Of a stretch of DNA of 64,000 bases, positions 1,876-51,958 are shown one piece after another. A model generated the notes under the pieces. That model worked only from the letters and a program-made list of their open reading frames with translations. It was not told where the DNA came from and searched no databases. Origin of the DNA: Octopus vulgaris (taxonomy: Eukaryota); the NCBI GenBank assembly GCA_951406725.2, contig OX597825.1, positions 67,084,001 to 67,148,000 of the forward strand, in the 5' to 3' direction. The translations under genes were made by a program, and so were the position numbers. Positions within the stretch are counted from its first letter, which is position 1. Every line of letters begins with the position of its first letter.

Positions 1876-1949
1876 ATGCAGTATGGCCGTTTCAAGTGGC
1901 TCCATGTAATTGAACAATGCAATCATTACAGTGCTATCTTCAGTTGCAC
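1876..1949 (-). ncRNA. Degenerate type I hammerhead ribozyme-like motif
   Basis: Minus strand reads GTGCAA-CTGAAGA-[stem II with TGTAAT/ATTACA]-GAAA-CGGCCA-TA-CTGCAT. Core intact; one mismatch each in stem I and stem III. Confidence 0.45.
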
Positions 1950-2765
1950 AAATAAATTGAATCTTAACAAGTAGTACACATTAATATAATTTCTATTAAA
2001 TATTTTAACAGAGTAAGAAGATGTAGGCAATTCATGTTGTCACTATTGTAGCTAAGAATAGACTACATCTTCTAAGAATCGCATGGTGCATTGAGGGGTC
2101 ATAGGGTTGTAAGTGTTGTAATTCATTTCTAATTCATTTATCTCTATATCTTCTACTAAATGTGAGACTAGGAGATTGTGTCTATTTTAATTAAAGGACA
2201 AGAGGGAATTGACTGCTCATGGCTAGGCATGGTCATAAATATTATCATAGGTAACCCATAGAAGAAATAAGACATTATGAATAGTCGGTTGATAGGAATA
2301 AATGTCTATAAAAAGAGGCAGAGTAGGGGTAGACTTTAAATCATGATGTAAATTACCAGTTAAAGGGGAAAGACAATAAGAAATTTATGATGTTAATACA
2401 GGGAAAATTTTAATAAGGGCACTATAGTAAGAATTCCAAAAATAATATCATAACCAAAATTGCTGAAAAGTGTGTATATATCAATTATAAACATTAAAAA
2501 GGAAGATTACATAGAATCAGTTTAATATCCAATCATCTACTTAATTAATTAATTATTAGTCTGTTGTTGGTTACTAGAAAGACTGCTGAAGGCACTTACG
2601 TATAGAATAATTGGAAAGATATACATATATCTATTAATTTTAAGGCATGTATCAGAAAAGTGTAAAAATACATAAACATGCATATACAAAGAGGGTTCTT
2701 TTTACATATATATATACGTACACACACGCGAACACATATATATGTATATGTGCATATATGCATAT

Positions 2766-2872
2766 ATATATGTATATATATATATATATATATATATATA
2801 TATATATATATATATATATATATATATATATATATATATATATATATATATATATATATATACACACACACA
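2766..2872. repeat. (TA)n/(CA)n microsatellite (representative of dozens in the window)
   Basis: Direct reading; such runs explain the [14 protein letters not shown] ORFs. Confidence 0.98.
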
Positions 2873-4495
2873 CAAATATTTATACGCTTATATGAACATA
2901 GTATAGATAATTTGCATTGACTACGTTAAAATAATTTAATAGATTCGTTTTTTGATTTCGTTTCAGGTATATCTTTCGAGGAATGCATAGTTCCTAGCCT
3001 TCTTTCACTCAAACAGATGATTGTATTTTGAATAAAAGGTAAAAAAAAAAGGGTAGCTGTTTAGAACCGTTTCAGAGGTAGTGAGGTTTGAGAAAGAAGT
3101 TCAGAAATGGTTATATGAGTTGTGTAGTCGTGAATGTGCGTGTGTGCGCGTGTAGGTGTATGTGTATGGTAAATGTGTTTGTATGTTAGGCTGTTGATTT
3201 TGATGCCATGTGGGTAGTGTTATTTATAAATCGAATGAGGCAGTTGGATAAGGGATACAGATTGTATAAACAATAAAGCAACTGGCGCAGTAATAAAAAT
3301 TGCGTGGAAGCTATACGTACACACACACACACACACACACACACACATATATATATATATATATACATGCACACAAACACACTCATATAGATAGATACAT
3401 ACAAACACACACATGTATGTGTGTGTGCCCGCGTATATGTGTGTAATTGTGTATTTATAGAGAAAAGTATTATAAACATAAGCTGCAAGTTAAACATGCA
3501 TACCTATACATGTATGTATATTGTGCAGAGAGAGGGGGAGTGAGATACACAGTCATAGAGAGAGAGAGAGAGAGAGAGAGAGAGAGAGAGAGATTATTTT
3601 GATGGAGAGAGAACCTGTGTTTAGGCTGGCTCAGAGGGTTTAGAGTAAAATATTTATTTATTTTTTATTTGTTTGTTTTTACAAAATATAAATAGTTCCT
3701 AGCTTTAGGGACAATTGGCCAGTCGTAGAAATCATCTGACTTCTTCAGAAATAACTGATTTGAGAAAAACAAAACAATAATAATATTACTAAGAAGACGA
3801 AATGAAAACAGATAGAAAAGAGAGAAAAAAAAAACAGCAAACAAACAGTAAAATTAAGAACTCAAACAACTAACAAGGATGTTGAATTAAAGGAAGTACA
3901 ACGTGTGTTAAAATTATGGCGTCGTCAGAGGATGGCAAAATTCTGCTGAGACGGTCGGAAGAAGTTGCTGCTTGTATTTAATAATGCCGGCTTTAGTTCT
4001 AAGAATAAGCGATCCCGCGGGAGATTTAACACGTTTAACGCAAAGTCTTTAATCATTTTATATAGGATACGATTCCACTATATTTGTTTGGTTTTGAGCC
4101 AACCTAAAGAAAATTAACAAGTATACATCTGTACACGTGGATATTATATATATATATATATATATATATATATATATATATATGTGTGTGTGTGTGTGTG
4201 TGTGTGTGTGTGTGTGTGTGTGTAAGAGACCTGTTGAGAGATTTGTTCAGCAAAAATATATTATTGCGATACTTACACTTAGCTTTTTGCTATTTTTGCT
4301 ACTGAAGAAAAATGTTGGCTACTTACTCGTTAGAGCAAATCTATTCACAGGGGATATATAGGAAGATATATATATATTTAGGCGGGCAATTTAGACTGGT
4401 CGTGGGCATGCATACGTGCATATATATGTATGTATACGTTCGTATATGTAAGTATTCGTATGTTGTATATATTTGTATTTATGTACTATCTGTGT

Positions 4496-4558
4496 ATATT
4501 CGACTGATGAGGCAAAGCATTTCTTATGCAGAGTCAGAAATCCGGGATCTGGAAATAT
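4496..4558 (+). ncRNA. Type I hammerhead ribozyme-like motif in a TA-abutting element
   Basis: ATATTCGA-CTGATGA(4504-4510)-GGC..GCAT/ATGC..GTC-A-GAAA(4537-4540)-TCCGGGA-TC-TGGAAATAT. Stem I is imperfect. Confidence 0.55.
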
Positions 4559-4698
4559 CCAGTAATTTTTTGCTAGTTAATTTTGTATTTTTGTTTTCTC
4601 TCCTGTTGCTGTATGAACATTTAATGTGGTTTTAGAGTTAAGTTTTGGCTGCTATTTCCAGCGTGTTGATATCTCTTAGATACCCTAAATTATAATTT
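4496..4698 (+). mobile_element. Penelope-like pLTR/retrozyme-type remnant ending at (TA)n
   Basis: Homologous to 37719-37909; carries the hammerhead-like motif; its 3' end joins a (TA)n run. The PLE assignment is inference. Confidence 0.55.
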
Positions 4699-4964
4699 AT
4701 ATATATATATATATATATATATATATATATATATATATATATATGGAGAGAGAGACAGAGCGAGAGGAAGTGAAGAGTTTTCGTCAGAATGACTCAAACC
4801 AATAGGCATGCGTTTTGAGTGTTCAAATAGTTTGAAAACATACACTTGTATATGTGTGTGTTTGTGTGTGTGTGTGTGTGTGTGTGTGTGTGTGTGTGTG
4901 TGTGTGTGTGTGTGTGTGTCTGTGTTTGTGTGTTTGTGTACGCAAATACGTACACAACCAAGCG

Positions 4965-49198: not shown

Positions 49199-49259
49199 CA
49201 TATATATATATATCTATATATATATATATGTATGTATGTGTATATATATAAACATACAC

Positions 49260-49440
49260 AGGCACAGAGGTGGGAGTGTGGTTAGAGGCTTGCTTCACAA
49301 CCACATGGTTCCATGATACATCTGACTGTGTGTCACCCTGGGCAAGTGTCTCCTACTATATATAGCTTTGGAACGACCAAATCCTTGTGAGTCGATACTG
49401 GATTTGGTAAACAGAAACTGAAAGAAACTCGTCCCATATA
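49260..49440 (+). mobile_element. Family C SINE 5' half
   Basis: CAACCACATGGTTCC..CACCCTGGGCAAGTGTCTCCTACTATA..GAAACTGAAAGAAAC. Confidence 0.75.
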
Positions 49441-49710
49441 TCGAAGTGTGATATACTTAATTGGTGCATATCTAAAAAATAAACTCCAATACTATTAAAT
49501 TTTACATTGATATATAATATTAAACCAGCGAAGCGTGGATGTTAACATCACTTTTAAGAGATATAGTGGGATATATCAATGGCAGTCCTTAACAAGGATA
49601 TTATTTTCTCCCTTACATAATATATGTAAAGCAACATTGACCTCGTTGGGATGTGAACTTCTAACCTAAATATCTGTAACCAACAATGTTATCCGTGTAC
49701 TGCCTTATAT

Positions 49711-50095
49711 GGAAGCACTCCGTCGGTTACGACGATGAGGGTTCCGGTTGATCCGAATCAACGGAACAGCCTGCTCGTGAAATTAACGTGTAAGTGGCTG
49801 AGCACTCCACAGACACGTGCACCCTTAACGTAGTTCTCGGGGATATTCAGCGTGACACAGAGAGTGACATAGTCGGCCCCTTGAAATACAGGTACAACAG
49901 AAACAGGAAGTAAGAGTGAGAGAAAGTTGTGGTGAAAGAGTACAGCAGGGATCACCACCATCCCCTGCCGGAGCCTCGTGGAGCTTTTAGGTGTTTTCGC
50001 TCAATAAACACTCACAACGCCCGGTCTGGTAATCGAAACCGCGATCCCATGACCGCGAGTCCGCTGCCCTAACCACTGGGCCATTGCGCTTCCAC
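49711..50095 (-). mobile_element. tRNA-derived SINE, family A, full length with 12-bp TSD
   Basis: Reverse complement of 678-1065; TSD ACTGCCTTATAT at 49699-49710 and 50096-50107. Confidence 0.93.
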
Positions 50096-51759
50096 ACTGC
50101 CTTATATAAAGTCTATATCATTCACCGAATACTTACATTAACCAACGACGTTGTTTTATTTTTATACACATGAATTACCTTAAGAAATACTGAATTCACT
50201 CATCTTTAGAATATTTTACGTAACTAAACAGAACGTCGCATTTTCATGACCCACGTCGCCATATTAGCTTTAGTTATACTTCTGTTAAATGCATTAACAT
50301 GGTCCATTTCCTTCTTCATCTTTTGTTTTAATTTATTTAAATTATACGTTTATTCGTTCTTTTCTTATATCCTCAACTACTACTACTACTACTACTACTA
50401 CTACTACTACTACTACTACTACTACTACTACTACTACTACTACTACTACTACTACTACTACTACTATTATTCTTATTGTCAATTCACGTTCTTATCCTTA
50501 GTGTGTTTGTGTTACCATTGGGTGTTTTTGACTAATGGTATTCTTAATAACTTTCTGGATCTTTTGAAATGATTTCAATCAACCTATTATTATATAGAGT
50601 AGCGCTTGTGTTTCAATCTTACAAGTGGCCTGAAGATCGGAAATGTAATACTACCAGATGTAATTTCTGAAGGTTCAGCTTCGAAATAAAAGCTTACAGT
50701 CTGTTATTGTTTTATTGAATGGTAACTGCTTTTGGTTGTAAACACAAACTTCTATTAATTACATACACAGAAGCACACAATACTGTATGCACATACACAC
50801 GTATACACATGTACACACACACACACACACAGATATATATATGTATATATATATGTAAATACCTACATATATATATATATATATATATATATATATATAT
50901 ATATATATAATAGTGTAATAAATAAAATATATGCATACATACAAACATATATGTACGTACCGACATCTACATGTATATATACATGCATATATAAATATAT
51001 ATATACGTACAGGACATCACAAGAAGACGAAAAAATCAACAGAACGAAAACGGAGAAGACATTTTGTTACAACAGAAGGACAGAGACGTGGAATAAGACG
51101 AAACGAAAACGAAAACGGGAAAAACAATTATGTGTAGCAGAAAAACGAAGTACAGGACATGCTACACAAGGAAAAATCCCCTTCATCAGCTGTCGCTAGC
51201 AGACACGTGTTTCGAAGGCAGAGACAGAACACGTAAGGGCAAGCTGGGCCTTCCTACGAGAGAATTAAAATAAAATAAACTCGTAGAGGGGTAAACGAAA
51301 ATGTAACACAAAACGGGACGTAACAAAGAACTGCACAAAAAATACATACAAGAAAAAAATAATACAAAATTAAAGATACATGTATATATATATATAGTTA
51401 ATGCAAACATGAAAGCACAAAAGAACACAACAACGCGAAGACGTGGAACACACATACATATATAAATGTATGAACGTACATAAGTACATATATATGTATG
51501 TGTGTGTGCATAAGCATATGCATGTATGTATATCTGTACATTTTTTATGTCTGTATGTAAGTATGCACTGGTGCATTGTTCTTATATAGACAAATGATCT
51601 AACAAGGATTGTGATCTTCAGATATACATACATAAACAAGCAGACTTTGCTATACCTATTGACACACTGCTACGTAGACATACACACACACACACATACA
51701 TACACACACACACACACACACACACACATATATATATATATATATATATATATATATTT

Positions 51760-51958
51760 AGGAAGAGTTTACGAAAAAAACAAAAGACGAAGACAGGTGG
51801 TGTACAAAACAAACAGATGTATTAGTATAACGCTCAGGAATGGAAAAGGCATTTTACGTTTCGAGCCTACGCTCTTCTACAGAAAGGGACACAGAAAAAA
51901 CAAGGAGAGAAACAAGGAGGGAAAAATATGTGTAGTGGCTAACGATCTATCATGGCGA
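51760..51958 (-). mobile_element. Family D repeat with hammerhead-like motif, ending in (TA)n
   Basis: Minus strand CTTT-CTGTAGA-A-GAGC GTAG GCTC-GAAA-CG-TA-AAAT at 51851-51886. Confidence 0.8.

Follow-up and report, generated by a model that had tools for sequence, protein, structure and literature searches.

We analyzed a stretch of 64,000 nucleotides of the Octopus vulgaris genome (assembly GCA_951406725.2, contig OX597825.1, positions 67,084,001 to 67,148,000 of the forward strand; hereafter the window, numbered from its first letter), in which short repeats bordering (TA)n microsatellites carry type I hammerhead ribozyme folds close to their 3' ends. An earlier reading of the letters (the original prediction) had named eight such hammerheads in six families and described them as a system of microsatellite-targeted modules related to Penelope-like elements (PLEs) or retrozymes. 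The present analysis extends the set to eleven credible hammerheads, and suggests that the motifs and the repeats carrying them very probably derive from many endonuclease-positive (EN+) PLE families, in the form of truncated copies, solo end-repeats and short non-autonomous offshoots. This reading is carried by the excess of motifs over shuffled sequence, by the architecture of their cores and stems, and by the anatomy of the insertions, which is independent of the hammerhead motif.

Results

Frequency and position of the hammerhead motifs

The window is AT-rich animal DNA (34.8% GC), dense in microsatellites. A strict hammerhead descriptor gave 2 matches against a mean of 0.03-0.08 across 40 dinucleotide shuffles, and a relaxed one gave 7 against 0.75-0.8 (shuffle maximum 4-5). 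A scan with a scored model returned 13 sites at a score of at least 14, compared with 0.92 in shuffles (maximum 3, n=60), and these sites include all eight hammerheads of the original prediction, each found where it had been placed. When core and stems I and II were scored without a stem III term, 14 matches were obtained versus 1.71 (maximum 6, n=100 shuffles). The unscored stem III was palindromic in 10 of these 14 matches and in 17 of 171 shuffled ones; when family D, a repeated family described below, enters only once, the proportion in the window is 8/12. The motif is hence more frequent than in dinucleotide-shuffled sequence, as had been anticipated.

The named sites also share their position relative to microsatellites: at least five TA units lie within 270 nt downstream in seven of the eight (baseline 0.173, p 3e-5) and a microsatellite of any kind does so in all eight (baseline 0.258), in agreement with the predicted 3' junction with a microsatellite, usually (TA)n. 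Five extra candidates emerged from the scored scan; the three better-scoring ones (22666+, 32511+ and 45822+) fall within the same 270-nt limit while the two weakest fall outside it, and the addition of these three to the named eight brings the total of credible hammerhead sites to eleven. No alignable sequence common to the six hammerhead families was found, and the view that they are unrelated therefore holds. The candidates 8506+, 46163+, 58520- and 5781+ were set aside as probable chance matches because their scores lie within the shuffled range, and three of them have no (TA)n nearby. We also searched the (TA)n junctions for a common terminal CCCT motif, which proved too sporadic to claim.

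Cores and stems

Sites are designated below by the position of their core. An intact CUGANGA core is present at four of the eleven credible sites (1943, 4504, 28526 and 48803) and a covariant U3-A8 core at two others, 29727 and 45822, which are unrelated to one another, so that the core is intact or U3-A8 at six sites. The other cores carry A6U (three family D copies and 32511) or G5C (22666). The CUGANGA consensus that had been given for all families is thus literal at four of the eight named sites, and fails at 29727, which reads UUGAAAA, and in the three family D copies, which have U at position 6. We found no natural A6U variant in the core-variant literature searched, and U at position 6 is not among the motifs of minimal hammerhead ribozymes (min-HHRs) in the available portion of the supplement to PMC4209133. 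An extra nucleotide lies between positions 9 and 10.1 in family D and at 22666, 29727 and 32511, and stem III has at least 4 bp with a loop of 0-1 nt at 48803, 28526 and 4504.

Anatomy of the insertions

PLE insertions are known to display a partial tandem arrangement, an inverted pseudo-long terminal repeat (pLTR), a tail, and solo pLTRs (Arkhipova et al. 2013, PMC3846280; Craig et al. 2021, PMC8557442). At 48475-49197, a partial tandem, an inverted 5' copy and a one-sided tail are all present, and the insertion reads in the order (TA)n, inverted arm 49197-49121, second copy of the 3' end 49124-49004, unit 49003-48475 and (TA)26. An arm together with a tail was found at 37527-37909 (93-nt arm), 29470-29826 (element E) and 6730-6940; the arm of element E, which has 78% column identity to 29535-29584, was missed by an ungapped search. 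Neither partial tandem nor inverted arm nor tail was seen for families A, C and D or the three added sites. The elements listed in Table 1 together span about 3.7 kb (6% of the window), a coordinate sum in which several 5' ends are uncertain. Automated repeat annotation attributes 6.83% of the O. vulgaris genome to PLEs, in 190 families; the word "ribozyme" has 0 occurrences in the available text of the 2026 O. vulgaris repeat annotation, and the family D motif is absent from its supplement as available.

Table 1. Hammerhead sites and related elements in the window; "added" marks hammerheads not in the original prediction
Feature	Coordinates	Strand	Core	H17	Other characteristics
Hammerhead A	1877..1948	-	CUGAAGA 1943, intact	1882	U.U at stem II base; stem III CGGCCA imperfect; microsatellite junction ~45 nt downstream; weakest named site
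Family B copy	4485..4697	+	CUGAUGA 4504	4549	Stem III UCC-G-GGA; G.A at stem II base; ends at (TA)23; 5' end approximate
Palindromic stump without hammerhead	6730..6940	+			55-nt perfect inverted arms 6730-6784 / 6800-6854; one-sided 86-nt tail; (TA)n both sides
Family D copy in (TATG)n	15022..15210	+	CUGUGGA 15088, A6U	15115	Extra A
Hammerhead (added)	22657..22729	+	CUCACGA 22666, G5C, likely decayed	22720	Palindromic stem III CGCGCG; fragment of another repeat separates hammerhead from (TA)22
Element C, 107 nt, between microsatellites	28512..28618	+	CUGAAGA 28526, intact	28576	Stem III CUC-G-GAG; (TA)n 42 nt downstream; Hydra-like
Element E	29470..29826	-	UUGAAAA 29727, U3-A8	29699	Stem III CGCG
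Element E, short inverted 5' arm	29786..29826				78% column identity to 29535-29584
Probable hammerhead (added)	32504..32592	+	CUGUUGA 32511, A6U	32585	6-bp stem II; imperfect stem III; (CA)n/(TA)n 168-195 nt downstream
Family D copy	34766..34952	+	CUGUAGA 34831, A6U	34858	Ends at (TA)11(TG)35
Older family D relative	35062..35226	+	5' core box decayed, 3' box intact		72-75% identity
Family B compound insertion	37527..37909	+			~100-nt tail and inverted arm 37631-37723; (TA)n both ends
Family B copy within compound insertion	37720..37909				Truncated inside stem II, joined to tail and arm
Unit F family, short 3'-end fragment	45035..45086	-			Upstream of (TA)33
Hammerhead (added)	45816..45858	+	UUGACAA 45822, U3-A8	45853	Perfect 5-bp stem II; stem III GCGC; (TA)n 67 nt downstream
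Family D 3' half	48113..48212	+		48115	5' boundary 0-3 nt from predicted cut
Unit F, 529 nt, no open reading frame	48475..49003	-			Ends at (TA)26
Unit F hammerhead	48808..48734	-	CUGAUGA 48803, intact	48739	U.U at stem II base; palindromic stem III CUAAUUAG
Unit F partial tandem	49004..49124	-			Second 3'-end copy directly upstream; spacing 529; 85-90% identity
Unit F inverted 5' arm, 77 nt	49121..49197	+			88% complementary to 48563-48639, without the 88-nt tail; (TA)n beyond arm
Family D copy	51758..51959	-	CUGUAGA 51882, A6U	51855	(TA)n both sides

Unit F, a high-copy family

Contigs from 4 of 24 listed sequencing runs were mapped to 48476-49195. Three of these runs are DNA-like, come from two organisms and yielded 3572, 3078 and 3676 contigs on this interval, with all 30 bins covered, those of the 190 nt preceding the hammerhead among them. 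The high copy number that had been predicted is thus borne out for the unit F family, the sole family whose copy number was measurable. Of the 24 runs listed, 20 contain a part of 48470-49200 and none contains half of its words; no RNA run is listed as containing it. The fourth mapped run, provisionally taken as RNA, gave 307 contigs, which do not serve here as evidence of expression. The listed loose ends at 3' termini (48478 and 49002) are TA-rich or (TA)n.

The listed differences between unit F and the family majority all lie outside the core, stem I and stem III. At 48792 the majority letter extends stem II by a G-C pair, with a free-energy change (ddG) of -3.9 kcal/mol, and at 48782 it retains the stem II pair as G.U. 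The whole unit folds better than all 100 shuffles on the ribozyme strand, with z -3.4 as a linear and -3.7 as a circular molecule, versus z -0.8 for the complementary strand. The control repeats, and likewise a unique stretch, have z as low as -2.2 to -2.4. Examined singly against the whole fold, 24 majority letters comprised 8 stabilizing and 11 destabilizing changes (P 0.065 vs random changes). No contig among those listed extends across the tandem joint with 31 letters to either side of it, and the window contains no tandem of two hammerhead-bearing units.

Family D, a family with an altered core

Family D has five copies in the window, three of which begin and end at the same points and are about 190 nt long; all three intact copies carry A6U. 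The copy at 48113 starts 0-3 nt from the predicted cut, an observation that concerns a single copy, was made post hoc and involves a flank that offers microhomology. The fold of family D has z +0.7 to +1.4, and families D, B and A fold no better than shuffles. Searches of viral contigs, metagenome contigs and prokaryote genomes with family D patterns gave no match.

Neighbouring repeats

Several other repeats adjoin or resemble the elements above. A fragment of a long interspersed nuclear element (LINE) at 32008-32532 (-) harbors a zf-RVT domain (PF13966, E 1e-6) and is presumably L1/Tx1-like; the 32511+ hammerhead element lies at its edge, on the opposite strand. At 40312-40995 (+), a broken open reading frame (ORF) between trinucleotide repeats encodes CxxC and a D-like nuclease stretch and has no Pfam or PDB match; we take it to resemble the C-terminus of an R4/Dong-type LINE with a restriction-like endonuclease. 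A 545-nt structure at 27866-28410, with arms that are 75-82% complementary, is possibly a PLE insertion or a miniature inverted-repeat transposable element (MITE), and its + strand contains, near 28150-28195, a decayed string resembling a hammerhead. A stretch of about 340 nt between (TA)n tracts, at 44600-44941 (+), has a CUGAAGA box near 44852 and no intact GAAA, and is possibly a decayed PLE end.

The window is also rich in dispersed families. One of about 400 nt, probably a short interspersed nuclear element (SINE), has copies at 670-1066, 15839-16237, 49709-50095, 27434-27614, 5093-5215 and 60251-60390, which are up to 96% identical. Another of about 230 nt, probably a tRNA-derived SINE, has more than 10 copies, among them 6051-6288, 25510-25752, 20410-20875 (tandem, 217 nt), 58120-58357 and 62420-62607. 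A third abundant family, often with (TA)n at one or both ends, is found at 44165-44580, 54275-54681, 45196-45421, 37352-37529 and 60864-61029, and had no hammerhead match in the scans. The same scans gave no hammerhead match in three tandem copies of a 171-nt unit (96% identity) at 55470-55985. A local duplication at 45423-45640 adjoins (TA)n and ends in a short terminal string that it shares with the 6730 element and the family B ends.

Discussion

Origin of the elements and alternative explanations

An origin of the repeats from EN+ PLEs would explain both their hammerheads and their anatomy by steps drawn from published PLE biology. A protein with reverse transcriptase (RT) and GIY-YIG domains, encoded elsewhere (acting in trans or from a full-length parent), would nick (TA)n DNA and copy the element RNA from its 3' end; early stops of copying would leave stumps, and fold-back or template jumps would create the inverted arm and the partial tandem. 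The pLTR hammerhead is predicted to process the precursor RNA by cleavage, chiefly in dimers formed via the palindromic stem III, and the majority of the copies in the genome would by now be fossils undergoing decay.

Several observations weigh against this reading. The descriptors were composed post hoc, when the sites were already known, and the scan without a stem III term is for this reason the more independent one; the 270-nt cut-off was likewise chosen post hoc, from the range given in the original prediction. The hammerhead is not the minimum-energy fold of most single sites, as expected for motifs thought to act as dimers. Five of the eleven cores are altered (A6U four times, G5C once) at positions where changes usually reduce activity, and in family D none of 10 pairs changed on both sides, in a comparison of five rows that has little power. 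Thirty further rows of family F majority differences exist beyond those listed, and the tails, at 65-100 nt, exceed the published 30-40 nt. No RT or GIY-YIG remnant was found beside any site tested, so that none of the families can be linked to an autonomous parent: Pfam gave no match in six frames of 1-14.7 kb nor in 15 frames upstream of five further sites, in keeping with the prediction that no ORF accompanies the motifs, and phmmer gave 0 matches against 1.84 billion proteins for a semi-open frame upstream of 1943. The Rfam hammerhead models were absent both from the 147 window matches at E<=1, which are microsatellite artefacts, and from four focused scans at E<=10; Rfam hence misses these motifs altogether.

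That AT-rich DNA with dense microsatellites produced the motifs by chance is exceedingly improbable. About 1-2 matches are expected at the lower thresholds, the four dropped candidates are probably of this kind, and 1943- is weak; however, the 13 sites found where shuffles give 0.9, the palindromic stem III and the motif-independent PLE anatomy refute chance for the set as a whole. A different question is whether the hammerheads act at all. They could be inherited dead passengers, with families like D spreading via the 3' end alone and cleavage uninvolved, which would be compatible with a PLE origin as regards identity and would differ on function only. We consider this possible, if on balance doubtful. 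It finds support in the A6U of every intact D copy and in the spread of Naiads without hammerheads; in addition, min-HHRs in vitro show nil cleavage as monomers and low cleavage as dimers, and the A6C core change lowers the cleavage rate in Mg2+, so that the family D hammerhead may be catalytically dead. It is harder to reconcile with the U3-A8 compensation at two sites, with the listed family F majority letters, which preserve the core and extend stem II, and with the D copy that begins at the cut site.

Unit F raises a further alternative, namely that some families, and chiefly this 529-nt unit, consist of dispersed monomers from retrozyme-like arrays, which would be cut to unit length, circularized and then reinserted by PLE proteins. 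The unit has no ORF, its own 3' end lies directly upstream, its fold is strong only on the ribozyme strand, it is high-copy over its full length, and dispersed retrozyme monomers occur in Xenopus. Nevertheless, we regard this origin as unlikely: the window has no tandem of two hammerhead units and no listed contig spans the joint, the unit is longer than the 170-400 nt of described retrozyme circles, control sequences reach z -2.2 to -2.4, the majority letters stabilize the whole fold in 8 and destabilize it in 11 of 24 cases (P 0.065), families D, B and A fold no better than shuffles, and a truncated copy behind a partial tandem would look identical. A related and more speculative proposal, to which we likewise give little credence, is that two non-autonomous PLE offshoots, unit F and family D, use their hammerheads in vivo. 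Unit F would then be retrozyme-like, a self-paired circular RNA relying on a Hydra-type hammerhead, and family D a fixed SINE-like unit of about 190 nt whose A6U core would cut as a dimer, as the start of the 48113 copy at the cut site suggests. If true, such high-copy families would allow a genome-wide test of PLE hammerhead cleavage during transposition.

The general picture of PLE derivatives with hammerheads is already published, and the value of the window lies in its material: within 64 kb there are about nine families with hammerheads, U3-A8 cores at two sites and A6U in two families. The A6U family with its cut-site copy and the strand-specific fold of unit F are the parts that could add interest, and a genome-wide count of copies with 5' ends at the cut site would probe in vivo cleavage from DNA alone. 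Short PLE derivatives of this sort may be filed as unclassified SINEs.

Comparison with known systems

The arrangement has already been described in animals, and the elements reported here most likely constitute an additional set of PLE members. The original proposal of PLE or retrozyme modules is upheld in its PLE part, by the insertion anatomy, the hammerhead architecture, the association with (TA)n and the high copy number of the unit F family, and not, within the window, in its retrozyme part. Like animal non-LTR retrozymes (Cervera and de la Pena 2020, PMC7229834; Li et al. 2026, 10.64898/2026.07.22.740005), the elements have no ORF, a type I hammerhead and low GC; those retrozymes are presumed to be mobilized by PLEs, as here, and the 529-nt unit may likewise be well self-paired. 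However, the definition of a non-LTR retrozyme requires a hammerhead in each of two or more consecutive tandem units. The window contains no tandem hammerhead array, and its elements are therefore not retrozymes by the published definition; moreover, their hammerheads are minimal or Hydra-type rather than canonical.

The resemblance to min-HHRs (Cervera and de la Pena 2014, PMC4209133) is closer. These are mostly single motifs, probably derived from truncated PLEs, and U3-A8 covariation was found among them in Schistosoma PLEs. The elements of the window share with them the extra nucleotide after A9, G10.1-C11.1, the palindromic 15.2-16.2 and loop 3, the U3-A8 variant, the many unrelated families per genome and the mostly single motifs, and the 29727 core UUGAAAA is identical to that of the S. 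mansoni(4) motif; U at position 6, in family D and at 32511, sets them apart. Compared with PLE insertions (PMC3846280), they share the inverted 5' arm, the partial tandem, the tail at one end only and the ORF-less stumps, and differ in their longer tails and in the three family D copies with one 5' boundary. Further literature cited comprises PMC3088659, PMC7151607, PMC6962438, PMC8967140 and PMC13282606.

The closest architecture is that of the Hydra clade of PLEs, all of which carry hammerheads and almost all of which insert into (TA)n, and which includes Hydra-1_Obim, a family curated from Octopus bimaculoides; the role of PLE hammerheads is still open (Craig et al. 2021, PMC8557442). To present the motifs as a new system would hence be an overstatement, as Hydra-clade hammerheads with (TA)n insertion, including an Octopus family, had been published. 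The elements of the window differ from this clade, whose proteins are characterized by RWK, DKT, a CxCX5C linker and the lack of CCHH, in having no ORF, in a longer stem II at 48803 and 1943, and in a cut-to-end distance of up to 263 nt. They resemble it in the type I hammerhead near the 3' end and in (TA)n insertion and, as judged by eye from the table of Hydra hammerheads, in the frequent U.U at the stem II base, the 4-bp stem III and its loop of 0-2 nt. The comparison is one of architecture by eye, no family here being matched to a published consensus, and by it (TA)n insertion is combined with a Hydra-style hammerhead at 1943, 4504, 28526 and 48803. Judged by RNA architecture only, Hydra-type families are the likely source of these four sites, and other PLE clades with hammerheads that of the remaining ones. 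The likeness is most detailed, again by eye, between 28526 and Hydra-1_Obim, which have 13 contiguous nt around the core in common (6 of them the invariant core) and cut-to-end distances of 42 nt and about 36 nt, respectively.

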